From the NCBI GenBank assembly GCA_965649765.1, contig OZ287751.1:63736001-63800000 (forward strand): a stretch of 64,000 nucleotides of DNA, given 5' to 3'. This DNA comes from Bispira polyomma. Taxonomy: Eukaryota. A program made the position numbers and the translations under genes. The notes below the pieces were generated by a model. It had not been told where the DNA came from. It searched no databases and saw only the letters and a program-made list of their open reading frames with translations. This document shows, in pieces, positions 16,182-62,589 of the stretch; position 1 is the stretch's first letter; the number at the start of each line of letters is the position of its first letter.

Positions 16182-16343
16182 AGAAAAGAGTGAAATAACA
16201 TCTCAGGTGGTGATTAGGAGAGACATCAGTGTGTGAAATAAAAAAGCCCAGCCAAAACCAAGTCATGTAGACAGATTGAGGTCTAAAAAACCTGATTTGT
16301 TTGAAGGGTAGATCTAAGACATTAGATCAAAACTCAACCCAAA

Positions 16344-17690
16344 ATGGATTTGACGACTGTAAAAGGAATGGCTGTAAATGGAAGATTAGAAGGAGGCTAT
16401 GATGCTGTTGATGCTTATCCTACTACCCTAGAGACCTCCGCCTCCACCAATAATTTGTCACTGGGCTTAATTTTGAGTAATGTGACAGAAGATGGTAGCC
16501 CCATCCCAGGTCAAGGGGGCGGCAGGCCTTTGCTGTGGTACCTGCATCTTTACCTCACCCCGGCCATCATCGCCGTAGGTCTGGCGGGTAACGGACTGAG
16601 TTTTATAGTGTGTGTGAAGACGCGCCTACGTCACCTCTCCTCCTCAGTGTACCTAGCCGCCCTCTGCGTGTCGGACTCCATGTTCCTCATCCAGCTCTGC
16701 GCCTACTGGCTCATCTACGTCCGCGTCTTCATCTTCCACATGGCCGGCCTGTGCCAGGTATTTGTTTACATTAGCTACGTCAGCAGCTTTCTCAGCGTCT
16801 GGTTTGTGGTGGCCTTCACCTTGGAGCGCTACATCGTATGCGTGTACCCATTACGCAAGCAGTCTATTTGCAGGGTGTCTAGGGCCCGTATAATAGTCGT
16901 CTGCCTCACAGTGATTGCCCTTGTGATGTACAATTTTGGCGCCTGGACCTCTGGCACAGTGAGTCAGCCCAGTGGTCACTCTGAATGCATTCCCCTGTTC
17001 AAGTACCGCTCCATCATCTCAGTTCTAAACAACATTGACACGTTCATCACCCTACTGGTCCCGTCCGTACTGATCATCTTCATGAACTTGCGGATAGTCT
17101 TCAACCTCTCCCAGCTGGGATCGGTGCGGGTGAAACTCCTCGGACCTCAGACCGAGGAAGACAACCGTATCCTGTCAAGGGCGCCCAGCCAGCTGAGCCA
17201 CAACTCTGTCGCCAATTCGCACGTTCATCAGCGTTCGCTGATCCAGAAGTCACAGGTGAAGATCACCAAGATGCTGGTGAGTGTGTCTAGTATCTTCATC
17301 ATTCTCAACCTCCCGAGTCACGTGATCAGAGTCTACATCACCATGGTGGATCTGTTCTCTGACAAAATGTACGATCCACCACACAGTGTCGTCATGTGGC
17401 AGCAGGGGTTCTATTTCATGTACTACACCAACTTTGCCGTGAACTTCTTCCTGTACTCGCTCTGTGGCCAGAACTTCCGACATGCCGTCCTGACACTGTT
17501 CGTCAAGGTGAAGTCGCGCATCAAGCGGATAAACACGGGCATCCACGGGTCAAGGATGTCGAGGAACACTACCATGGAAATGTGTTCAGTAACGCACAGT
17601 GGCAACGCATCCCCAACGCAAGACAACGACAAGACAACAAGATTTCCAAGCTCCTTAACTTTAAAAATCTCAAATAGTGGTTCTAAATAA
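16344..17690 (+). CDS. Class A peptide GPCR, FMRFamide/sex-peptide receptor-like group, most like CNMamide receptors; 448 aa, intronless CDS
   Basis: Seven hydrophobic segments: TM1 GN, TM2 LAALCVSD, Cys at the top of TM3, FTLERY, ECL2 Cys, TM5 LLVP, TM6 TKML..LNLP, TM7 NFFLY..GQNFR. N-terminal sequons NLS and NVT. AAAATGG start context; GC-rich codon usage. Confidence 0.95.
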   Translation: MDLTTVKGMAVNGRLEGGYDAVDAYPTTLETSASTNNLSLGLILSNVTEDGSPIPGQGGGRPLLWYLHLYLTPAIIAVGLAGNGLSFIVCVKTRLRHLSSSVYLAALCVSDSMFLIQLCAYWLIYVRVFIFHMAGLCQVFVYISYVSSFLSVWFVVAFTLERYIVCVYPLRKQSICRVSRARIIVVCLTVIALVMYNFGAWTSGTVSQPSGHSECIPLFKYRSIISVLNNIDTFITLLVPSVLIIFMNLRIVFNLSQLGSVRVKLLGPQTEEDNRILSRAPSQLSHNSVANSHVHQRSLIQKSQVKITKMLVSVSSIFIILNLPSHVIRVYITMVDLFSDKMYDPPHSVVMWQQGFYFMYYTNFAVNFFLYSLCGQNFRHAVLTLFVKVKSRIKRINTGIHGSRMSRNTTMEMCSVTHSGNASPTQDNDKTTRFPSSLTLKISNSGSK

Positions 17691-30591: not shown

Positions 30592-31123
30592 AGTCTGTAA
30601 GTGCTAAGGCCACCACACCTTAAAAAAATTCATGTTCTTTTAAAATTGTAGTAACATTTTTCAGAAAGATTTCAACAAGGGGTTTCACCTGAGAAACTTT
30701 GTATAGAAAGAGACTTAATTTAGGTCTGATTCACAGAATATGTAAAAGGTAAGCGACAAGCCTTTTTTTTAGTAATTAAACACTATTTTACAGTGTATAT
30801 TTTACAAGTTAATCAGACAAATTTAGAGTTTTATTTTGGTCCAAAGATTTTCTTTTTGTATTGTGTTGTACATTTTTAACGAGCCTTATTGATGCTAGAC
30901 ATCTTCTAAGGCTCAACATCAGAATCAATAAACTGGTAGAAAAAACAAAATAATAGCCAGGTTGTCAGGAAGGATACGGGAGCGTCCAGGGAACGGCTAC
31001 GGAGGATAGACGAGCATGAAGAGATAGGTTTTAAGCTTTCTCCTATATCCAGAAAGTCTATAAAGCAAACTAAGCTTCCTGTAAGCAATCTTAGCTTGGT
31101 TATAAGTTCTTCTGAACACCACA
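30592..31123 (+). repeat. 532-bp direct repeat, left copy; contains an L2 3' end on the minus strand (~30870-31065)
   Basis: Ungapped match to 36363-36894 (offset 5771); 12 substitutions by my count. Confidence 0.97.
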
Positions 31124-31322
31124 GTGACTACAACAGTCGTTTAAGTTGTGAGTGAAATTGAAAATGTTGTACTGGCCTAGGGTGACCTCTAAAGGTCATA
31201 GATATTGAGGGTGAGGAATCAGATGCTGTTTGGGATAATTTTTATTCTAACTACTCGTCTCTATATCCAACTGTACAAGAAAATTATTTTCGATTAACAA
31301 TTTTTAAAATGCCAAAGCCAAA

Positions 31323-32302
31323 TTAGAAAGTAGAAGAGACGAGGAATGCGAAAGTTGTTGGAATAATTGTGGAAGCATGAGAGGTAGATTGAAGGTGAGA
31401 CCAAACAGCATCTGATTTCCAGCATCCATGTTTTTGAAAATGCTGAAGTTTAACGTTAGCATTAAATGCCAAGGAGGCTCCCGAGCGCCTGAAGCAATGG
31501 AAAGAATGCCCTTCTTTTGGGATATTCAACTGGGTTAAGATAGAGCTAAGGGTATGCCTTAAAGTCGAGTCTGAAAGGCACTGGCCTTTATGTAGTGGGT
31601 TTGCCAGTAATGGGTAAGAAGGGGGCAGAGGATATTTGCTAAATAGAGAAGTGGCTGCCTTCACAGGACAGAGCCATGGGTTTGAGAGTGCTGGTAGTTG
31701 TAGGATGTCTGGGTTTTTCCTGGTTTGGTTAGTCTTACTCCATTTTAATATGAGGTGAATGCCTGGGGGGGCAAACAACACGTCAGCCCTTGTTAGGTGT
31801 CTGGTAGGGTCAAAGGGGAGACCTGATGTGGTGGTCAGGTTAGAAATGCGTAAAAAACCAAATTAAGCAAACAGGAAAGCTGTTCTGAATAAGTCAGGAA
31901 ATGGAAACTGGTTAGAAGCTTGTGAAATTTGTTGTAATTGGTGCAAATCGAATACCCCTTTGACCCGAGGTGTGTATTTCGAAGTGAGTTCTAATGACCT
32001 CAAATATAATGGCAATCTAGGGTCATAAAGACCGGTTTGCTGAATGTTAAGAATTTTTGTGTTGTGCCTAATGGAAGATAAGTAATTACTCAATACTTTG
32101 TAAGAGACACCTGTTTGTGTCATAAATTCTAAAAAGGCTATAATGCTGTTAAAGCAAAAGGTTTCCCTTAAATCAAAATAAACTGTAAAGCTCAAAAAGA
32201 GTCTGAACTGGCTGTCATATTGCCTTTGTGTCCTAGGTCTGTGACTTTGTCTCAGTCGTCTCAAAGCTCCTTTGATCAGTGAGGAGGCTGAGTCAGAAGT
32301 AT
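31323..32302 (-). pseudogene. E1 tyrosine recombinase
   Basis: FGFLRISN, KWSKT, HCFRRSGA, HGCWKSDAVWSHL. In-frame stop at 31863-31865. The catalytic Tyr position reads His (VWTYI in E2). No ATG near the 5' end. Confidence 0.92.
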
Positions 32303-32308
32303 CTGAAA

Positions 32309-34807
32309 TTACACATAAGTATCTAAGGTAAAAAATTCAATGGGTATGTCATGCATGATGAAGTTGTGTACAAGTTCCTGTTTTATTGTATTGTCATAAT
32401 GGTCTAATTCAAACCACCTAGATAGAGCGTCTGCTATTATGTTGTCCTTGCCAGGTATATGTCTGATAGTCAAGTCAATATTCCTTAGGGCACAGATCTG
32501 CCAGATGTTCCTTAAACACAAACCTAAATAGTCGTCCCTGGTTCTGGATGACTGTACGACAGACACCACAGCCATGTTATCCGATTGTATCTTGATCTTT
32601 TTATTACTCCATTTGTGACCCCATAATTTGAAAGCTATGAGAATACTGACCATTTTGAAATGGACAATGGAAAGTGTTTGTTTAAGGAAGCATGGTAGAG
32701 GGGCTTTGAAAACCTCTAAACCAGAAATGCCACCGATTCCGGATAAACAAGCATCGACTTATAGTAACACGTCATGTGAACTATCCAGGTATGTGTACTT
32801 AGTTGTACCATTGAATTGTCTGAGAAAAGTTAAAAACCATTGTAAATCCTTATGAAACTCGCTTGTCAAAAGTACTGTTTTACTACTAGTAGATTGCCTT
32901 AATAAAGTTAACATTCTGTTCATAAATATCCGAGAATTCTTCACGCAGAGCTGTATGTATAATAACTTTCCCAGTAGTGACTGGTACTTCTGTTTACGTA
33001 CTTTATGCAAGTATTTAAATTCCATACAGATGTCAAATATGGAGTCTAATTTAGTTTGTTCAATACTGAGTGTTTCGAGATCTATGTCAATAGTGATGCC
33101 CATGCAAGTTACACGTTTACTAGGGGGAACTAGTTTCTTGGTATTAATAGGGAGGCCTAGGTCTGCTACGATTTCTTGTAAAGTAGTGTAAGCTAAGTCA
33201 GCCTTATCTTCAGTCTCAACGAGTATGAAATCGTCGATATAGTTGTAAACTATATATCCTTTCTGTCTTATAATATAAGTAATACAATCAGAAATCATCA
33301 TAAAGGCCACCGTGCCATGAGTGAGTCCAAAAGTTAGACTGAGATCAATGAAATAATTATTTTTCCAAAGGTAACCTAACTTCAAACAATCAAAAGGATC
33401 AATTCTTAAATTTCTAAACGCGTGCGCGATGTCCACTTTCGCTAAGGTGGCCTTAGTTCCTAACTCAACAATACGGGTAGTGATTTGATCAATGGTAGGT
33501 AACCTTAAATTAAACTCGACGTTATCATATTTATTTTTAATTGTACAATCATTTACAGATTGTCCCAGGGGGTGAGAAAGGTTAAGAACTAAATGACGCT
33601 GATCAATATCTTTAGGTACCGTTAATAAAGGTGAGCAATGTATATCCGGGTGAAGTTTTTCTAAAATAGGGCCCACTATGGTGCCCTTAGCTACTTCTGT
33701 AACGAAATACTTGTCAATGGCTTGTGGAAACGCCATAGCCGAATAATGGTTTTTGACATTTATGACCTTCAATCTGTCCCTCTCATACAGAGATATAGGA
33801 AACCCGAATTCTATATACTGTAAAACAATTTGATCCGGATAATCGACTAAGTATTTCTTCCAATTGAGAACATTGAGATCACTTTTAATGGGGAAACGCG
33901 CTTGTCTGTAGTTTGGCACCTTAATGGTTTTAATAATATCAGCTACTTCCAAAAACTTATCATAAGAAGTCAAGTCTACCTGTTGTCTGTCTGGTCCTAT
34001 GAAGTTAAAATGGTTTCTCCCTTGAGGGATGAAGCCATAAGTTCTTTGGTCAGTAGGTAAAATGTCCTCATTCACAAATTCTTCCCTTGTGGGCGAGTGC
34101 TGTATGTCATTGGTTTGTAATACAACGTCCTGTGGAATATCGGTTACTATGTGTGTGTCCTCAGTTATTGTATGGTTCCGTGAAAGGAACTTGTCATTCA
34201 CCCAAGCGTTTATATGCTTGTTGTATGTTGTTTGTGTGGTTTGTTTACAAATGTTGTCAATGATGGTAATATAATAATCAGAAGAACTGATGTTTGTACG
34301 GGTATGAGTAACCTTCTTAGGTTTTGGTAAAGGTTGAACCTTGCTATATGAAACAGTGTTTCTAACTAGAACAGGTACAGATAATGTGTGAACAAAACTG
34401 ATGGGCCACATTTTTTCTAGAGAGAGATCATGTTTATGAAGTGACCATTGACCTTGAAAGAAAACCCAAGTGTATACACCTGAAACACTGGGGTCAGCAT
34501 TACAAACAATATAATACACTGGGCCTTTTAGGCCATCATAACTGTGACTACTGTACAAGTCAACCAAAAAAGAGGTTGCAATAAAATTACTACTGCCATG
34601 AACTTTTGCTGGACAAAACTTGTGACCAATAGGATATGAAGCTGAATTTCTACTACACGAGACGTTATTTTGTCCATCTGTCGTGAATACATCACAAGAA
34701 CAATCATTTAAGAACTGTCCATGCCTAAAGCTCATACTGTTCATAAAAATGTTCCTTTGGTTGACTAACTCAGAATTTTGCTTATTATACTCATGTCTTA
34801 AGTTCAT
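32309..34807 (-). pseudogene. E1 pol (reverse transcriptase + RNase H)
   Basis: LAKVDIAHAFRNL, LTFG, YNYIDDF, CMGITID, SLLGKL. Frameshift near 32760, then VDACLSGIGG, SDNMAVV, HIPGKDNIIADALSR. Confidence 0.93.
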
Positions 34808-34912
34808 GCTCTCACAATGCTCCTGCTCTGGAATCTCGACATCCGAGGAGGAATTCGAGGAAGTTGAATTTGAAGATGAGCCGTTCGAAATTAAGGCCTG
34901 GGAATAGGACAG

Positions 34913-35970
34913 TCAGTTCATTGTCCACCTAGTTTCGTCTACCCAGCTGAGGCGCCCCTCTTCCACATCGTGCATGTTACATGCATACGAACCTCTGGCT
35001 ACCTGCCAGGAGATATTAGAAGCATCTTTTAAAGTATCTGCTAACTGGATTAACATGGCGCGAGAAATAGTAGGGTTTCTCACTTCTAAGATGTTCTGCA
35101 ACTGACCTGCAGCAAATTGTGACACAGTGAGCTCATCATAAGAAACTCGTTTCTTATTAATCCCAGATAAACATGCTTCATTAGGCCAACGTTTGATTGG
35201 GTCGGTAACACACACTTCAGATACATTGTACCGACCAGACTTGCGTTTAGTACTGAGCTTACCTTGAAGCGATTCATCAGCAGCCAATGCCTCGTAACGG
35301 GCTAACCGTTGTGAAACCTCGTTCTGTATCATAGAGGACTGCTTTAATACATCTGGAGTAGGCAGGATTGCATCATGTAGCGACCTATGAGCTTGGTCCT
35401 GAGTGTAACCCTCCCGTTGAGCGTTGTAACGTGTCGGGTACGTGTCATGGGAAATGTGAGGACGAAAATCGTTGACTCCTGTGTAATTCACTGCAGGGTC
35501 CTGGAACTGAGAGAAGCTCTGGGTAAATGGTAAAGAAGAACCTATGTTCTGTGTAAAAGGTGCTGAAGCTTAGGTGGAGCTGGCATCTGAGGCCTAATTG
35601 TCTGAGGTGTTGACGGGACCTGAGGGGAAAATGAACGAGATGTCTTTAAGCCGGATACGTCTTCCTGTAACATAGCTACCGTGGAAACTAGTGTTTTTAT
35701 CATAGACTGCTGCTCTGTGAAAATGTCTTTGTAAAACTGACCAGAACTCACGTGATCTTCAAAAAAGTGACTCGAGTCGGCGACGGAGTTGAGCGTGCTA
35801 GTTTCACCTCCCGCTCCATGAACTTCAGTAGAAAAGACTCTGCTGGCTTCTGCTTCTGACAACTCATCTTCGATGACTAGACGACACCTATTACCCACTG
35901 GTCAAGGGTGTGAAAAATTACAGCGTGAACACAAAGCTACAGTCACTTGCTTTCTCTTTCCTCGGCCCAT
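34913..35970 (-). pseudogene. E1 gag-like ORF
   Basis: ATG at 35970: MGRGKRKQVTVALCSRCNFSHP*PVGNRC. Frameshift near 35570. WPNE..SYDELTVSQF..WQVARG..EEGRLSW is homologous to E2 gag. Confidence 0.85.
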
Positions 35971-36362
35971 AACGAGATATCCAATTCAAAAAGCACACTA
36001 TAAGATGGTAGACGTTAAAACTGACTAAAATCACTAAACGTAAACGTGAAACAATGTCTAAAAAGTATAAAATAAGCTTGTTTCCATTTGCACAATCACT
36101 TATTTCCAATATGGCGGCTCTATTTGCCAATTCCAATGTGATTTCAAAGTGTTGCTACATTAACTTGCAACTTAATAATGACCAAATGTGGGAAAAGGCG
36201 GGAAATTGACTTAAACCTAAGGAATTTGATTGGTAGTGAAGTAAGAGAGGTTCTGGTCTAGGATTGGTGTATCTGGGTAAACAATTCTTAAGTAGGTAAA
36301 TAATACAGTAAGGTATTACAACTTCGCGACTGACTAGCCATGCTTTGCGAGCAGTGACTACA

Positions 36363-36894
36363 AGTCTGTAAGTGCTAAGGCCACCACACCTTAAAAAAAT
36401 TCATGTTCTTTTAAAATTGTAGTAACATTTTTCAGAAAGATTTCAACAAGGGGTTTCACCTGAGAAACTTTGTATAGAAAGAGACTTAATTTAGGTCTGA
36501 TTCACAGAATATGTAAAAGGTAAGCGACAAGCATTTTTTTTAGTAATTAAACACTATTTTACAGTGTATATTTTACAAGTTAATCAGACAAATTTAGAGT
36601 TTTATTTTGGTCCAAAGATTTTCTTATTGTATTGTATTATACATTTTTAACGCGCCTTATTGATGCTAGACAACTTCTAAGGCGCAACATCAGAATCAAT
36701 AAACTGGTAGAAAAAACAAAATAATAGTCAGGTTGTCAGGAAGGATACGGGAGCGTCCAGGGAATGACTACGGAGGATAGACGAGCATGAAGAGATAGGT
36801 TTTAAGCTTTCTCCTATATCCAGAAAGTCTATAAAGCAAACTAAGTTTCCTGTAAGCAATCTTAGCTTGGTTATAAGTTTTTCTGAACACCACA
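36363..36894 (+). repeat. 532-bp direct repeat, right copy
   Basis: Matches 30592-31123 without gaps. Confidence 0.97.
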
Positions 36895-45337: not shown

Positions 45338-46199
45338 TCACAACTTATATAGATATGGTAACTTACACATGCAAGGACTCAGAATTGAACCCACAATAAG
45401 AGGGGAGTATGTTACCACTAACCCACTGAGATTTCTTTTTTCATATTATAACATAGTGTCTTATTAGTTCAGAGGGCAAGGACTGAGATTCGAACCCACA
45501 AGAACAGAAAGGTGAGCGTGACCACTACACCACTGAGACCCTCTTTTTAGGTCAGAGACGTTCTAACGTGATTGGTAGCTGGGGGCCACCATGTTGTATG
45601 ACGAGTCTAAGATAAACTGTGTAGGGGGTGTAGATTTATTGCTAATATTCGTAAAAAACATATATCTTCTTTTATCATGGAAAAATGCAAGAATTGACTG
45701 ATGTAGAAATACACCTTTTTAATTCTGGGATTCTTGTGTCTGGTAAAACATCAAAACTGACTTAATTAGCAGTCCCCAACACTCCCAAGCCAATAATAAA
45801 TTCAATGAGGGTACATAATTTATTATATAAATTGTATAAAATATATAAAATACACTTCTAATCTACTGACTATTTACATTTCTTAATATGTTACGTAATA
45901 CATTAATGAATACAATGTGTAAAATTCTAAAAGTAAAGGTCATCTTGAGCAAAATAAGTTTAAGTTTTAACTTAAGTTACACATGAATGATTTATCAGTT
46001 TAAGATTATCCTTAAGCAATACTTTAAGGTTGTCCTAACCTGAGGGCCACTAAGGTTAACATACGTCATAATTTAAGGTGACCCTAATCTGAGGGGCCTA
46101 AATAATTTCCAGATAAAGTTCAAGTTGACCTAAACTTGTTTTAACATGTTTTAAGATACATCAGATCAAGCCTCAAACCCAAACGTAGGGTAATGACAT

Positions 46200-47197
46200 T
46201 TATACAGCATTAAGTAGGCGCTGGAAAGTTGCAGCCACTTCTGTTGAGCCATTATTGCTCTGAATATACGTCCATACACAATCCGACTTCCAGGTGCCAT
46301 GCTCCTTGATTTGCTGTATAGGTACATCTGCTTTATAAGCTAGAGTGGCACCTGAACGTCGAAATGCATGGAATGTATAATAATTAGATGGATAATCCAA
46401 TTTATTGTTAAGTAGTGCCAATGTTTTCCTAACTCTTGAATCCGTAGCCACCTGCCAGCCCTGAGCCATCTTGCACTGGAACAATGGATCTTTTTTACCA
46501 GGATTGTAAAGATGAAATAACTTTCTTAAGGCTGTATATGGACAAATGGTAGAAGAACCTAATCGTGGCAATGTCAAAATTTGCACCTTGTCCCTAGTTT
46601 GCATAGTCTTTGTCCATTTTAACTATATTTTGACTGTGTGCTTCTGAAAGAACACATCTGCACCAGTTAAGTGCCTGGTGTGATCAAATTCCCTGATTGC
46701 ATGTGGTGCGATATTTGAGAGTCTCAAAAAGCCAAAGTATCCTGTTAAAAAAATAGCCTTGTATACGTACGAATTGCTTATATAATTGCATTGAGCTACC
46801 AATCTTTCAAGTGTGGGCACATCCATGATATTTCTCTTAACTATAGTATGAGTTCTATTAATCTTTAATGACTTGATAAAGTATTTTATCTTCGGGTGAT
46901 CAAAGATTACAAATTGTAAATCATATACAATACACATGGCTTTAATAGCTGCAACGTAGTTTGCCACCATATGAACTGAAACTTTATTGATAACCAGAAA
47001 CTCTAGAAATGACATAATACCATTTATATTTAAACATTCCAGTGCTATATTAACACAAAGGCAAAAAGCCACAAAAGTTCTAAATAAACCTTGGTAGCAA
47101 AGCCTGGTCTTTGGTCGAAAGGCAGTGTGTAATCTCTTGCTAGCTTTTATCTGTAGCTTTTGCACTGCTCCAAGCTCTACAACACAAAGCATAGTAT
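46200..47197 (-). pseudogene. E2 tyrosine recombinase
   Basis: YFGFLRLSN, KWTKT, HAFRRSGA, HGTW, VWTYI (catalytic R-K-HxxR-H-Y present). One in-frame TAG at 46623-46625. Confidence 0.93.
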
Positions 47198-47203
47198 CTG
47201 TTA

Positions 47204-49791
47204 TTAAAGTGTATTATCAATGTCTGTCAATTCTAAAGACGTTTTAACCATACTGGGTTTTCCACCAATGTGTTCAATTCTTGTACATTATCAATTGTAT
47301 ATTTCCAACGTGACAATAGATCAGCGATTCTGTTGTCTCTTCCCATGACATGTATATATTGGAGCTCAATGTCTGCTACTGCAGCCATATACCATATATT
47401 TGTCGCACATGCTGAGAGATAAGGGTCTCTGGCCCTGCCAGATTGCAATACATTCCCAACTGCATTGTTATCACATTTAATAAGGACCTTACTACCTGTC
47501 CAGTATTTTTGGTATAACTTTAAGGCTACTAGTATGTTAATCATCTCAAGATGAACTATGCCAAGATTTTGAAAATTTGTTGGTATTGGAAGATGATATA
47601 CAAGACTTCTCCATCTTCCTCCCAGGCCATAAAGGCAGGCGTCTAATTTCAATGTTTGATCAATGCTTTTATGTCCATACATGTATACACCATTGTATAG
47701 CGGCAAGAATCTATCGAACCATCTCAGATCCCGTTTGAACTCTTCTGTTAAAATGACCTTGTTTGGATTTGAAATACCTCTTAACAATTCCAACATCCTA
47801 TTTAGGAAACACCTCGCAGGTTTGACGCATTTGTGAATGTATAACAATTGACCTAACAAAGATTGCAAATGTTTTTTGGTACATTGTTTTTTATTTTGCC
47901 ATTGACTGACCGTAGTTCTAATTTGCTGTAATTTCTCGTCTGGTATGGTCATTGTGCCTTTTACAGTGTCAATTAGTACTCCTAGGCACACTGCTTGTGT
48001 GCTAGGAGACACTAACTTTTTCTGACTGATTGTAAGTCCTAACTTTTCCATGATTTTATACAAGCACTGAAATGAGCCTTTTGCTGAGGTGGGCGTACCT
48101 TAACCAAGGAAATCATCAAAATAGTTGATGACGCTATGGCCACGTAGACGCATGATGTAACGCACGGCGTCACTGACGCGTTGGAAGAATTGGCTGCCGT
48201 GACGGCTCCCAAAGGGGAGACACGTGTCTACATAAGTACCTTGCCAATTGAGTCCTAACAAGTCATAATCAATGGGATCAATTTTTAAATGGTGAAACGC
48301 GCGACTTACGTCCAACTTATAGATGTGAGCGCCTTTTCCCAATTTGGTAACTTCTTTAGTAAGATTGTCAATAGTGGGGAAGCTGAGCTTAAAATCTGCC
48401 CCTAAATAGCTATCTTTTTCTACCCCATCATTTACTGAATAACCTATAGGCCAACTCAAGTCTATAATTACTCGCCTGTTATCTGAATTAGGCTTGTGCC
48501 TAGTCATGAACGGTGAATGATGGCCGTTTACAATTGGGTTTTGTTTGAAGGGTCCTATTATCGCCCCGTGACTTTTTTCCTCATCAGTGTAAATCTGGAC
48601 ATCATTGGGATATTCTATTGCTGACTTATGATTGTCCACATCACACCTGAGTTCACATTTCCGATTAAAACCTAAGGGAAACCCAAACTCAATGAGCTGA
48701 AGTAATTGCTGATCCCAATAGTCCCTCAACATAACCTTCCATTGTTCTGTGTTTAATTGAGATGTCACTTGTATTCGAGCCCCCATGAAATTTGGTTGCC
48801 CCTTTTCTTTGACTTTCTGATGTAACTTAATTGGGCATTGAATGGTTGTGTTTGTAAAGCTGCTACCACTTGGTAGTGTTTGCTCAGTGATTGGAATAAA
48901 TCCAAATTGAAACTCTGATTGTTTTGTAAACTTAGTGAAGCTGTCACAAATGCCACTGATTTGTTTTGCTTTGACACCTTTATTGTGAAACAATATTGAG
49001 TTAATGAATTTATCGTCCTGAATGCTATTTACATCAAACAATAGTTTTGTTTTGGCCGGGCTATTATCATCATGCGCCACTTTGTTCACTTTTGTGGGGG
49101 AAATCCCCCTTTGTGATTGTTGCTTGTTGTGTTTACACCTTTCCTGGAAGAGAGTAAGTTTTTGTGTTGTGACACTACTAACCGCATTGTTTGATTTTGC
49201 GTTGAGTGTTTTGACACCCTGTGGTTGTATTTGGTGTTTGCTTACTTTACATCAAAAACCCACACTATTTTGCCTAGCTTTAACCGCACTGGCATAAGAT
49301 CTGATTTTGACGTCATAACTGACGGCCCGATATGTGCACATGACACTTTGCAACGGACGAACGAGTAAACTTTCTATGTCACTTTTTCTCACTTCTTTGC
49401 TATAAAAAAATCTGCCAACATAACTTGTGTCACGCTGTTTACATTTAAAACCAGCAAGGTACTTTGCCTGCTTTGTACTGACATTTGTATCAATAGTATT
49501 TACACATTCAGTATTACTAACACTAGAACCATTTGTTTTTCCATTCACACTAAAAACATTGACAACCTCTCTGTTTTTGTTTACCTGTGACTGACTGGCC
49601 TTACTACTAAACCAGCTGCCTTCCAGTTTAGCAAATATGTCTGTGGAGTTTGCCCCCAATCTCGTGATCTTTGATTTGTTGACAAGCACCAGTCTGGTAA
49701 AATTTACAGAACCATGGTTTTTTGTTACTGTCAGATTTCGGCCAATTTTTTGTCCCTCCAAAATTATTATGGCTGGTGTGCTTTTGTGCAT
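47204..49791 (-). pseudogene. E2 pol (RT + RNase H), 5' end overlapping gag
   Basis: RVIIDLS, YKLDVSRAF, LPFG, INYFDDF, in-frame TAA at 48100-48102, LDACLYGLGG, CDNNAV, HVMGRDNRIADLLSR. 5' boundary approximate. Confidence 0.92.
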
Positions 49792-50692
49792 GAGCCCTGC
49801 GAATATGGTCTATTCTATTTGTGTCATCCCAGGTAAGGGAGCCCCTCTCCATCTCACACAGGAGTACTGCGTGAGCAGCCTTAGCCCCCTGCCACGTAAA
49901 ATCCGTGGCGTCCTCCATTAAATCAGACATATATGCGATCATTTTATCTTTCTTACCTCTATCAGATTCCTCACTTATGTTTTTGCAAAAACCTTGTACC
50001 CATTGGGACATTGACAACTGATCATAGGACAATCGAGTTCTTGTTGCCCCCCCTAATATTGATTCTTGAGGCCACGCTACTTTTTGTTTTACCACAACTT
50101 CCACTGGACAACCCCTTTTTGACTTAATTTTATTTACATTCTCAGTACCTGAATTTCTGCTGTCCTTCTCCAGTTACCTTAATCTGGAGTCAACTCTACG
50201 TTGGAAAGATGCCGAGGCCCTTAATGTAGCCAAACTAGGGAGTACTTGTTCCTCGTCAGAGGATTCACTATCAGATGTACTATCACTGCTATTCTGGTTA
50301 TTACATTGAACATTAGTTTTTTGACGAATTTTGCTTAACCTCCGCCCACCACTTTTAAGCACGTCCTTCTGTCGGCTGTTGCTGGATTCCGCTACCTGCT
50401 CCTCTACTACATCAAGACGAGAGTTCACCCGCTGTAGTTCCCTCAATATCTGCAACTGGACGCTATCCTGGACACTATCCCGCACTGCACTGCGTCCCTC
50501 AGCTCTTGCACTATGACTTTGCTGCCCATTTTCGCTAACATTAGTGTCCAACACTGTATGGGCTTCCAACACCGCCGTGTCATTATTATTGAATTTTTCA
50601 GTCAATCTTACACCACGTGTGCCCTTTTTTCCAGTTGGTGGAATGTGTTTTTCCTCACACTTTCTACACAGCGCCTTTGATTGTTTAGGCAT
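49628..50692 (-). pseudogene. E2 gag-like ORF
   Basis: MPKQSKALCRKCEEKHIPPTG. In-frame TAA at 50174-50176. WPQE..SYDQLSMSQW..WQGAKA; C-terminal CKFYQTGAC..H..HIC zinc finger. Confidence 0.88.
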
Positions 50693-52212
50693 ATTTCCGA
50701 ATGTTTACTGTTTATGCTATTATTGTTCTTATATCAGTTTCTGAAAGTAAGAAAATATACACAGGCCCCCAGCTCTCCCTTCTCACAGCACCATGACTTG
50801 GTTTAACTCGACGAATTTGACTATAAAGCAAGAATGATAAGTTAGGTTAGACCATCCCTTAATTCCGACCTAAAAAGGTCAAACCAAGCATGAGGCTGTC
50901 AGAATGAGCGATCTGTAAACACTGAGAGAGAAACGTTGTCAAATCCACACAATGTCTGTTGTAGATAACTAAAAACACTAAAATAAGTCCTTGTAGTATA
51001 ACACGTAAAACATTAAATAAAACAGTTTGTAAAAAAAAACTTGAAGAAAGTATTTTAGTTTTCTGCCACACTTGTCTGTGGCCAAATTCAAACTGACTTA
51101 TTATTAGGTGAAAAACCCTGCTGTTTATGGCTACAGCCAATGAGATTGATTGTTTGACATTTACTTAGCAACATGGGGGTTTGTTTACTTGTTTAGCCAT
51201 TAAGCAATTTTTACCTGTGTATTAGCCTGATACCCTCACTGAGTTTAAGGTCGTGTAGGACTGACAAGGGCAATGCCTTAACACTGCCCCCGAAAAGTAA
51301 GTCAAATCGCTAATCAAAATGGTAACTACTTAAGCCCGAAGTTTCACTCGGAACTGGAATACACCTACAAAAGTGATAATATTCTTACATAAAGTGGCCT
51401 TTAACTCCCTCCGAACTGCCTTAAAAAAAGCTCTTCTTGTTCATATTATCACACAGTGTCTTAGGTCAAAGTATTAACCTAATGCTTTTTGACTATTTGA
51501 GTAGAATTTTCAATCTTGTGAGAAAAATGACCTTGTGGGCAATGTGAAGTGTAAAGTGATGTCATGTGACCCTTTGATGGATGGCCAGTGTCAACAGTCA
51601 AACCACTTAAAAAGAAAGCCCCAACTAATGTCATATCATGTGTCTTTATGTCACCTAAATAAAAGACTAGTTGGATCACATCGGAGTTGACTTAGCTTTT
51701 AAAGAGAAATATCAACAAAAAACATACTGGAATTCACCTAGCTTTTAAAGAAGAGTTTTAACAATAAACAACAAGATAAGTAAAAGTTTTTCATCACAAG
51801 TTTAAGTAATATAAACACGTTATATAGATATATTCTGTAACATTTTCCCAGTTTGTGTTGCAGCAGCAAACATTATGAAACAAAATCGAAGTTTTCTTTT
51901 TGTGTTAAGATTAGATTTTGTTAATTTGGTGGAAAGTTTGTGCACGTGTTAAATATTGTTCATCAGTTCATTTGTTTCATTAACTTAGAACTCTACTTAT
52001 TTTCTGTATTTTGCTGTCTACATATTCTGTAAATTGAGGAATTTTATTTTTAACTAGACATTGTTAAGAGTTTAAGTGACTTTGAGTTCTCCTAGAGAGA
52101 AGATTTTGCATGGCCTAAACGGACTAGATTGCATTACATTAGATAAATATGCCAAATTATTGAATGTAATGTAAAATTTGGATAATCTAGATACAAGTAC
52201 CACCATGTGGGT

Positions 52213-59070: not shown

Positions 59071-59537
59071 AAACCCCATTTTTTGTTACATTCCTCTCTT
59101 AAAAATTAAATAGAAAGGGTGTGTATATTAAACACAATAACCCTGACTCATATTTAAAAGTAAAGAATACCTTACTCCATATATTAACCCCAATCGCCAA
59201 TTTACGAGTCCGTGATTGATATACCAGGCGAGGTTTTGCAGTCTCTGACTGCTATCTTCTTGCTTATATACTATTTACCATAGACCATGACAACGTATAA
59301 AATAGGTACTTTAATATGAGGTGAACTAGGGATTTTCTTTTAAGTCAGAAGAGTGATATTGCGAGTTAAGAAAATCAAATATTTGTATACTAGAGGTTTG
59401 GGAAATAGATTTTGTATTGCATTGTCATTTTTATAGTCAAATACAAATTAAATTAATCATGATGGAAACCTAGGTATTGTGCATAGTTACGGAAGCCTAT
59501 AAGGGTCACATGAGTAAAGTTTGAAAAAAATCTATTC

Positions 59538-59785
59538 TATGTCGTAATTACGACTTACTATGGCGTAATTACAACTTACGCTATGTCGTGATTACGACTT
59601 ACCCTATGTCGTAATAACAACCTACTATGTCATAATTACGACATACTATGTCGTAATTACGACTTACACTATGTTGTAATAACGATTTACTATGTCTTAA
59701 TTATGACTTATGGTATATCGTTATAACGACTTACTATGTTGTAATTACGACTTATGCTATGTCGTAATTATGACTTACTATGTTA
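59538..59785 (+). repeat. Tandem array of 21-23 bp units with palindromic core GTCGTAATTACGAC
   Basis: About 11 units of CTATGTCGTAATTACGACTTA. Confidence 0.95.
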
Positions 59786-59978
59786 TATAAATGACAAGAC
59801 TAATATGTTTTGATCACTGGATTAAAGCTTACAGACAGTGGATAGTTAATTTTGCAAACACAGTTAATTGTTCTTTACCTATTATTTAACATCAGTTGAT
59901 TTTGTGAGAATTTGTAACCTTGTTCTAAGTTATGGCACAGCTACACATACACACAAGGGTGTACACCTGGGCATACCT

Positions 59979-60208
59979 GGGATCTCAGTGATGTAGGGGT
60001 AACACCCTTGCCTCCCACCTATAGGGTCGCAGGATCAAACTATGCTGTGACTTTTTGTGGGAAAGTTGGTGGTATACTTGCTGAAAGTCATACAGTTTTA
60101 CAGAGCTTGACCAACACACCGGCTGGTTTCCTCCACCACTAAGCCACCTGTCGTGATATGACTTATACAATGTATTAAACACAATGTAAAAAAACACAAA
60201 TCAAATCA
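59979..60208 (+). mobile_element. tRNA-derived SINE, family D
   Basis: tRNA-like head, GGTTTCCTCCACC body, (AAATC)n tail. TSD-like ACCT(G/T)GGCATAC at 59965 and 60209. Confidence 0.8.
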
Positions 60209-60744
60209 ACCTTGGCATACTGTTTAGTTTGTATGTTGGATACAATAAAAAAGTGATTTTTGGGGTGGATCAGTCTATGTACATATTTCGTAAGTAAACC
60301 AAAACTGAGTTTAAGAAAATTATTAGCTTAAAAGTTATACAATCCAAACAAAGAACATTGTGGGGAATGAAACTGTATCACCTGCCAATGAAAACCTGTT
60401 AATGAAGTGTTTTAATAAAACAACTATCAACAATAAATAAATCTGAAGGAATTGCTGGGAATTAAAAAGTAAATGACATTCTTTGCAACCAAATGGCTCT
60501 AAAACATATTATTTGTAAATAAATAATATTATACAGGATAATCTTCGCAAAAATGGTAAATAGTATTCTTATGTGTAGGAGTCTACCTATCTGGTGTGAC
60601 AGGGTTCACATTCCCCCAACCACCCCCCCAAAAAGTATCACTTAAAAATTCCTGGCAACCCCTATGTTCATACATACATACATAAATTTTTTACTAATAT
60701 CGCATGTTTATAATTTATAGTAAATATATTAGTAACTTGTAGTT

Positions 60745-61038
60745 TGTCGTTATTACGACATACCATAAGTCGTAATTACGACTTATGCTATGGAATGGTA
60801 AGTCGTTATTACAACATAGCGTAAGTTGTAATTACAACATAGCATAAGTCGTAATTATGACATAGTAAGTCGTAATTACGACATAGTAAGTCGTTATTAT
60901 GACATAGTGTAAGTCGTAATTACAACATAGCATAAGTTGTAATTCGACATAGTAAGTTATAATTCCCACATAATAAGTCGTTATTACGACATAGTAAGTT
61001 GTTTTTACGACATAGGATAAGTCGTTATTACGACTTAT
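60745..61038 (-). repeat. Inverted copy of the GTCGTAATTACGAC tandem array
   Basis: About 13 units of TAAGTCGTAATTACGACATAG. Confidence 0.95.
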
Positions 61039-62589
61039 GAATTTTTTTAACTTTACTTGTGTGACCCGTACATAGTACATGTGTCATGCATAGTAAAAAT
61101 ATGGAGAGAACAAAAATTAAATTATCGTGTCATTATATATATTGTAATAGCTGCCTATTTTTAGATTTTTTCCAACTACGCAATACATCCCTTCCTTACA
61201 CAGGAGGCTACACACAAGCACTTGTAATATCCAAACTAGCACTATGGAAATGCACTATACTATGGACTGCCGCAAACACTGATTCAAAAACATAATTCTT
61301 CTTTTAGTACTTTTTTAAAAAAAATTGTAAAGGTGCTTAGTAGTAGGCGCTATATTAAAGGGTAATGTAATGTGTGTTGTGAAGTCAGTCACCTCACTCC
61401 TGTGTGTGTTTTTGGTGGCCTGTCACAAGGACACTGTCCTATGCATGTTTAAAATCTCATTTATCTTTATTTATAGTTAGCCACAGATCCCCAGAGATAT
61501 TATAACCCTGCACTCAACTAGACCACTAGCAGTCTCTTCACAGAGTGTAACAAACCGAATTACCCATCTCCTGGCCCAGATTACACACCACTAGTAATCC
61601 TATCCCACAATCCATAATCTCATTAGAATGGATCCTTTGTAAGAAGAAGCCACAAGTAGAAGTGGAGGTGATCAATTTTTTCCTCTACAGAAGCAGAATG
61701 CTGTTTGTTATAGAGGAGTGGATACAAGTATCAATTTTTAATAGCAGAGGTGCTGTGCAAATGAATTGTGTCAAAACAACCACAAAGTTGTCCCTAGATT
61801 ATGTTAACTTAATGATCAATGAGGTTTTGTGAGCCATGTTAAGTCAAATAACACTATGTTTATAAACAACACACATGTAGTTCCATTTTACTTCTTTATT
61901 GGCCCATTCACACTTTGGCGGTATGGGAGACTGTGCCAGAAGATACCACAAGATACTGTAACTTTACTTTACACCTGTTAAATTGGCTGTTCCTTCCAGC
62001 CCAAACATAACCCCCTGACACTTGTTTAGATAAGTTTTACACACAGAAACAAATAAATAAAGCCGGGAATAGACAATTACTACCATGCAATACTTACAGT
62101 AGGAGTTGCTATAGTGTTTCGGTAAAAGTTGAACATGAGCGAAAACAGGTGGAAATAGGCAGAAACAGTAGTGATTTGGCAATACTAGGAAATATTAAGA
62201 GGCAACACAGAAGGATTACTCTACCTTGTTCCACCTTGTTGAGGCAGAAGTTCTGACCCTACCCAAAACTTCCGCCTCGCATGGTCGATTGTATAAGGTT
62301 GTGATGAAAGAAGTTGAACTTAGAGGAAGTTTGGGATAGGGTTCTCTGTGCAAAGAAATAATTTCCGTCACAGTTTGAATGTCACTAAAAAGTTTTAATT
62401 GACAAAGTTCAGATGTTTAGACTGGTCCCTGTAGCAGTAATTGTAAGTAATTTCTTACAAATTAGTTTTCTCTTGGGGTTAAGCATACAATATATTGATA
62501 TTTAATCACGGTACCATGTTATTGTCTTTAAAACATTCCTTATTTCCCTTGCTTTCACCCATGTATTTTGGTTTGTTGTTAGCGGGCAT

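Follow-up and report, generated by a model that had tools for sequence, protein, structure and literature searches.

A conserved gag-to-recombinase splice predicted in Ngaro-type retrotransposons of Bispira polyomma

The stretch of DNA analysed here, 64,000 nucleotides (nt) long and called the window below, covers positions 63,736,001 to 63,800,000 of contig OZ287751.1 in the 1.035-Gb assembly of Bispira polyomma (GCA_965649765.1; G000:C4:63736001-63800000 in our notation). It contains two decayed Ngaro-type tyrosine-recombinase (YR) retrotransposons, E1 and E2, which have many relatives elsewhere in the assembly. Comparison with these relatives leads us to propose, with a probability of about 0.88, that the recombinase is made from a spliced subgenomic RNA. 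A phase-1 donor in the middle of gag would be joined to an acceptor, also of phase 1, that closely follows the pol stop, and the predicted product is the Gag N-terminus fused to the recombinase (GagN-YR). This interpretation is supported by the fixation of the donor codons, by an acceptor of fixed phase across families and by an intron-less genomic copy that is joined at the predicted sites.

The features of the two elements on which the argument draws are listed below in window positions, with a slash marking a predicted splice boundary.

36140..36363, minus strand: E1 5' terminal repeat A1, which recurs as A2 behind B1 in the sister copies L125, L126, L127 and L133
35263..35970, minus strand: E1 exon 1, N-terminal part of gag, 708 nt
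35257..35265, minus strand: E1 predicted splice donor AAG/GTAAGC, phase 1, within the Gly codon of Gln-Gly-Lys
32303..35262, minus strand: E1 predicted intron, with the rest of gag and all of pol (reverse transcriptase, RT, and RNase H; Pfam RVT_1 and RVT_3)
32303..32311, minus strand: E1 predicted splice acceptor TAATTTCAG/, overlapping the pol stop; the same position is used in L124, of a sister family
31323..32302, minus strand: E1 exon 2, tyrosine recombinase, 980 nt (weak match to Pfam Phage_integrase, E 0.05)
31134..31314, minus strand: E1 3' repeat B1, from the comparison with extended copies
45770..51296, minus strand: E2, whole element, by homology to the sister copies L128 and L131
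50149..50692, minus strand: E2 exon 1, N-terminal part of gag, 544 nt
50143..50151, minus strand: E2 predicted splice donor CAG/GTACTG, phase 1; GT in all 16 of the 20 close copies in which the donor was mapped
47177..50148, minus strand: E2 predicted intron (revised, 2972 nt), with the rest of gag and pol
47177..47197, minus strand: E2 predicted intron end ATACTATGCTTTGTGTTGTAG/, with a conserved TACTATR motif, a U-rich tract and the acceptor
46200..47176, minus strand: E2 exon 2, tyrosine recombinase (weak matches to Pfam Phage_int_SAM_5 and Phage_integrase)

An earlier, sequence-only reading of the window had proposed the splice, with pol inside the intron, from E1 and E2. Its donors, CAAG/GTAAGC at 35262 in E1 and TCAG/GTACTG at 50148 in E2, and its acceptors, TAATTTCAG/ATACT at 32302 and TAATAACAG/ATACT at 47197, were all located on the minus strand where it had placed them. 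Likewise, its exon arithmetic (708 + 980 nt in E1, with one gag frameshift, and 544 + 998 nt in E2) and phase 1 at all sites were reproduced, and the reported lack of an ATG near the start of the E1 recombinase agrees with a first in-frame Met 59 codons past the acceptor. Both E1 sites and the E2 donor have stood up to the wider comparison; the E2 acceptor has not and most likely lies at 47176, as described below. The near-equal lengths of the introns (2960 and 2951 nt) proved to be a coincidence, E1 carrying a deletion of ~260 nt at ~34844, at the gag/pol border, and its sister copies having introns of 3158-3223 nt.

Exon 1 of E1 encodes, in order, a C-x2-C-x3-H-x-R-P-x-G-x2-C motif, a linker and a conserved helix, LP...IQ..V..RL, and the pol stop at 32311-32309 lies inside the predicted intron. 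The gag frameshift of this copy is found near 35560. Since the predicted exons contain premature in-frame stops (at 31865 in exon 2 of E1, and at 50176 in exon 1 and 46625 in exon 2 of E2), neither window copy would be able to make the full fusion.

The comparison included 80 further YR loci from this genome, in which such elements are abundant (13,246 YR candidates at first look), and three from a metagenome record. We anchored 123 of 125 sequences and grouped them into 46 clusters at 80% nucleotide identity, 37 of which supplied the representatives used below (35 from this genome and two from the metagenome record). The remaining nine were dropped: L032 was mis-anchored, L035, L044, L046, L059, L076 and L081 had no gag anchor, L064 was a copy of the L053 family, and L065 was not homologous at the anchor. 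L044, L046, L059, L076 and L081 were retained for the test of the first YAG after the pol stop, and L042 represents the pair L041/L042, its sister L041 lacking the acceptor AG.

A GGT Gly codon that would provide a phase-1 donor (G/GTA) is located 19-32 codons before the WP anchor of gag in 36 of the 37 representatives. The G/GT is followed by A in all 36 and extends to GTAAG in 26. In the alignment, the donor Gly column is GGT in 27/27 and the next Lys AAG in 25/25. For comparison, GGT has a share of 0.10-0.68 in each of 29 other conserved Gly columns, and AAG one of 0.20-0.48 in 16 Lys columns taken as controls. A coarser grouping into 26 groups at 70%, with a median YR identity of 39%, gave the same result (GGT 20/20, AAG 17/17). 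This fixation of synonymous codons is not explained by constraint on the protein, and the residues flanking the donor and the spacing to the downstream K-S-G motif vary around a constant G/GTA. Scored against the donor consensus, the site ranks first, alone or tied, among all GTs in gag (43-88) in 32 of 36 representatives. Within the E1 family, the donor is GT in 14 of 15 mapped copies and GC in the other, and the acceptor is kept in 20/20; wider E2-clade copies with an intact gag frame have a GGT Gly at the equivalent place.

On the acceptor side, 35 of the 37 representatives have a YAG positioned exactly 71 or 68 nt upstream of the YR anchor, so that the conservation of position and phase expected from the window holds for both sites. 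Strong TTnYAG sequences in the acceptor region are distributed 33/2/1 over phases 1/0/2. The first YAG after an intact pol stop is in phase 1 in 30 of 32 cases, the share per phase being 0.31-0.34 in control intervals. Two complete elements from the metagenome record have the donors CAAG/GTAAT and TCAG/GTAAT and the acceptors TTGTAG. The GT..AG ends, the donor and acceptor consensus and the conserved position and phase are those of a spliceosomal (U2-type) intron.

The position of the E2 acceptor was revised using the wider E2 clade, from which 20 more distant copies were fetched and 19 scored. Only 6 of these 19 have an in-phase YAG at the 47197 position, and CAG/ATACT, common to E1 and E2, is therefore not a shared signal. 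A TTGYAG (or TTCTAG) located 21 nt downstream, with an exon start at 47176, provides an in-phase YAG in 18/19, at the -68 position that other families also use. Close E2 copies carry an ATG two codons after 47197 (19/19 scored), between the two acceptors, which might have served as a start of the recombinase; we rejected it as a conserved one, as it is ATA in 7/19 wider-clade copies and upstream of the conserved acceptor. Given the retention of the YAG at 47176 and the lack of conservation of the ATG, the conserved stretch TACTATR-CTTTG..TTGTAG is most likely the end of the E2 intron, with TACTATR as a putative branch-point-like motif. The acceptor thus most likely moves to 47176, giving a predicted product of 506 aa and an intron of 2972 nt, and 47197 is at most an alternative site.

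An intron-less copy was found in a sister family of E1. This copy, L124 (G000:C1:95308297-95310505, in the fetched region G000:C1:95304500-95312500), was first noticed for the exceptional length of its open frame. Its identity to L112 is 97.4% and 98.6% on either side of a 3,411-nt gap, whose ends in L112, GTAAGC and ATAATTTCAG (GT..AG), coincide with the predicted donor and acceptor. L124 is full-ended, beginning at the same first base as full copies and finishing at the end of the B repeat. A frame of 523 codons, interrupted by one stop, connects the gag ATG with the YR stop, and gag ...DESIQ passes directly into YR DTSL... at the join. The simplest reading is that L124 derives from a spliced element RNA that was reverse-transcribed and integrated, in which case the spliced RNA would be mobilisable as a pol-less element.

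Several observations weigh against the splice interpretation. L124 is the single spliced genomic copy found: junction patterns for E1, for E2 with either acceptor and for the L053/L067 family retrieved no further one, and the L124 junction query, with 40 and 150 scored matches, no second copy. Its breakpoints share a 2-nt AG microhomology with three equivalent placements, and DNA repair is a possible origin. The donor Gly is missing in L123 and the acceptor AG in L022, L098 and L041, each a single copy, the donor of the E2 clade is weak (GTACT, GTAGT), and in 4/36 representatives the donor is not top-ranked. A Met occurs within 22 codons before the anchor in 9/37 representatives, and 21 of the 32 families with an intact pol end have YR offset by -1 relative to pol and overlapping it to some extent. 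The families are of common ancestry and the counts not fully independent, so that p-values of ~1e-8 to 1e-10 overstate independence; the control columns share the same ancestry. Finally, the junction is seen here in genomic DNA, and its translation into a Gag-N/YR fusion is a prediction.

Spliced copies were also sought by open-frame length in the E2-type search and among the 123 fetched loci, neither of which yielded a further one. Three read runs of undeclared kind, DNA-like in character, contained no donor-acceptor joint on E1 or L067 and count neither way. In protein databases, the YR alignment matched 25 stand-alone open reading frames (ORFs; P0001-P0025, from other assemblies) and no fusion, and queries with the exon-1 alignment and with the region around the L124 junction had no match. 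Several of these 25 ORFs start with F/I/V-rich sequence (FCVIVD, FVAG, FYVIAD), as phase-1 read-through of a U-rich YAG acceptor would be expected to encode.

The expression of YR in Ngaro has been assumed to occur by -1 frameshifting (Poulter and Butler 2015, as quoted in the part of PMC13003380 available to us). Applied to the present elements, a programmed -1 frameshift on unspliced RNA where pol meets YR, or read-through there, would give a Gag-Pol-YR polyprotein, which is in keeping with the predominant -1 offset noted above and with the signs of gag-to-pol recoding in the same elements. The offset varies, however, with YR in the same frame behind the stop in 9/32 and in the other frame in 2/32; the overlaps are mostly of 1-8 codons, and a slippery heptamer is present in a minority, with no shared sequence. 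Frameshifting would also leave the fixation of the donor codons, the fixed-phase YAG and L124 unexplained, and we consider it very improbable here. We likewise see little prospect that splicing is real but yields a regulatory or by-product RNA, or that YR is translated from an internal ATG on a spliced or separate RNA. The product is indeed predicted from genomic sequence, and an internal start could draw on the ATG of close E2 copies and on the Met shortly before the anchor in nine representatives. Phase 1 is kept at both sites, however, which matters only if the join is translated, and the E2 ATG is neither conserved in the wider clade nor downstream of the conserved acceptor. In the remaining 28/37 representatives, the 22 codons ahead of the anchor contain no Met. 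An internal start is unlikely for this reason, and because use of the E1 Met at codon 59 would cut off the first helices of the recombinase.

It is hardly credible that constraint on the protein or on RNA structure produced the motifs as a by-product and that L124 is a chance microhomology deletion. The Gly-Lys does sit before the conserved K-S-G motif, and L124 is a single copy with AG homology at its breakpoints. Yet constraint on the protein leaves synonymous codons free, and G/GTA stays while its flanking residues and the K-S-G spacing change. The rough chance of a random deletion giving the L124 product is 7e-5 to 0.04, depending on the assumptions, and does not exceed 0.04 even under generous ones.

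Under the preferred reading of a gag-to-YR splice, unspliced RNA would yield Gag, plus Gag-Pol, reached in some families by reading through the stop and in others by a -1 frameshift, while spliced RNA would yield GagN-YR, consisting of the N-terminal 130-260 residues of Gag and a recombinase of ~325 residues. The Gag part, with its Cys/His motif, coiled coil and conserved helix, would carry the recombinase to the particle or the complementary DNA (cDNA), and the fusion would remain uncleaved, as no protease is annotated in pol. At the gag/pol border, some families have an in-frame stop (TAG G, TGA) and others a -1 overlap that includes a heptamer in frame, for example AAAAAAC; both would fit the production of Gag-Pol by recoding. 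The in-frame stop was seen in L001, L018, L085, L114 and L119 and the overlap with heptamer in L056, L060 and L067, so that a single clade may reach Gag-Pol by two recoding routes. A second acceptor, serving pol, was rejected for this clade, based on these read-through or slippery signs and on the absence of a TTnYAG pile-up, in any phase or bin, across 900 nt upstream of the pol anchor in the 36 representatives analysed.

The classification of the elements follows from their gene order, repeats and gene content. The window elements have the order gag, RT/RNase H, YR (Pfam RVT_1, RVT_3 and weak phage-integrase matches), and the Pfam scan of the window ORFs returned no methyltransferase family. 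In the 32 representatives whose pol end is intact, the pol stop lies 39-41 codons past the AD.LSR motif of RNase H, which leaves no room for a methyltransferase. Direct split repeats, A1..B1A2..B2, with the internal pair downstream of YR, were found in 4/4 extended E1-family copies (L125, L126, L127, L133) and also in L042, L089, L090, L092 and L100. The spacer between A2 and B2 measures ~0.6-1.4 kb at the 3' ends of L125, L126, L042, L090 and L100. Clear A2/B2 were not found in 5/5 extended E2-family copies (L128-L132), which may be A1..B1-only copies. The window E1 retains only A1 and B1, without A2, spacer and B2, and, like it, L109, L112 and L124 end at B. By the definition in the available part of PMC4157794 (gene order, direct split repeats, no methyltransferase), the elements are classed from their sequence as Ngaro-type. 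A PAT-like identity was discarded for want of a methyltransferase domain, and a DIRS1-like one because the repeats are direct, not inverted, and the methyltransferase is likewise absent.

An AlphaFold model of the YR exon of a family member (pLDDT, the predicted local distance difference test, 82) matches Cre over its whole length with a TM (template modelling) score of 0.65-0.70, and the third ORF would accordingly adopt a full Cre-like fold. In this model, the exon starts just before the first helix, and the first helices are those that a start at the E1 Met would remove. A sequence search of the PDB with the YR profile gave no matches; it was the fold search that gave Cre. One of the dropped loci, L065 (G000:C8:47844400-47853200), has a 367-aa YR ORF with no gag/RT nearby and no acceptor, and may be a Crypton-like element or a host YR gene.

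Other observations concern the surroundings of the elements. E1 is flanked by a 532-nt direct duplication (98%; 36363-36894 and 30592-31123), whose second copy begins a few bases inside A2, E1 itself being without A2..B2; a recombination or duplication event after insertion is possibly responsible. The E2-family copy L128 abuts the gag of another Ngaro-type element near the donor region of that element, as a nested insertion. Elsewhere in the window, positions 16326-17690 (plus strand) hold an intron-less ORF of 454 aa with a match to Pfam 7tm_1 (rhodopsin-family receptor; E 5e-22), and 59510-61040 contains two inverted arrays with a unit of ~21-23 nt, ~1.1 kb apart, which are foldback-like or MITE-like (miniature inverted-repeat transposable element).

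With the Ngaro elements of the order DIRS, as described in the accessible parts of PMC4157794, PMC9210276, PMC3783388 and PMC8547959, the present elements share the gene order, the lack of a methyltransferase and, in the E1 family and several others, the split direct repeats A1..B1A2..B2. They differ in the expression of YR, for which a -1 frameshift is assumed there and splicing is predicted here, and in having a spacer of ~0.6-1.4 kb between A2 and B2. The string 'splic' is absent from the main text of PMC9210276, PMC3783388, PMC8547959 and PMC3266345, and in the available part of PMC7192593 splicing concerns a marker intron. A search of the literature, including the accessible parts of PMC2632668, PMC9341512 and PMC6681497, yielded no mention of splicing between gag and YR in Ngaro/DIRS; the founding papers and Repbase notes lay outside this search and could already mention it. 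PAT-like and DIRS1-like elements (available parts of PMC4157794 and PMC3266345) are also YR retrotransposons; in PAT, the direct repeats are split and Gag has a zinc finger. According to the same sources, both have a methyltransferase domain, which is absent here, and DIRS1 has inverted repeats and a YR overlapping pol.

The expression of the third ORF in YR retrotransposons has so far not been shown, and a conserved splice would be a different, coordinate-exact and testable answer. It would redefine the recombinase as a predicted Gag fusion, suggesting delivery to the cDNA without protease or Pol fusion, and the Ngaro YR ORFs annotated in these animals would be missing their real N-terminus. 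We are evenly divided on a broader proposition, namely that gag-YR splicing is the ancestral and obligatory route to YR in the whole animal Ngaro clade, perhaps in Ngaro generally, that the fusion co-assembles with Gag, that spliced RNA integrates as a pol-less element, and that this mechanism is unpublished and replaces the frameshift model.

A division of labour of this kind, with recoding for Pol and splicing for the third gene, would be a retrovirus-like arrangement in a separate retroelement order. The env mRNAs of retroviruses and gypsy-type elements and the gag RNA of copia use splicing to express a third ORF or to set a protein ratio, pol being removed as an intron. Env is not an integration enzyme and carries few or no Gag codons, and integrase is part of Pol in those elements. 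The nearest analogue is the SD' RNA of murine leukemia virus, which encodes P50/P60 (available part of PMC10496198). There, too, a donor in gag is joined to an acceptor near the end of pol, the N-terminus of Gag is fused in frame to integration-enzyme sequence, and the spliced RNA is mobilisable. According to that source, P50 is an accessory protein with no more than the C-terminal 116 aa of a DDE integrase, whereas in the present elements the whole recombinase would be encoded by the second exon, apparently with no other route of translation.

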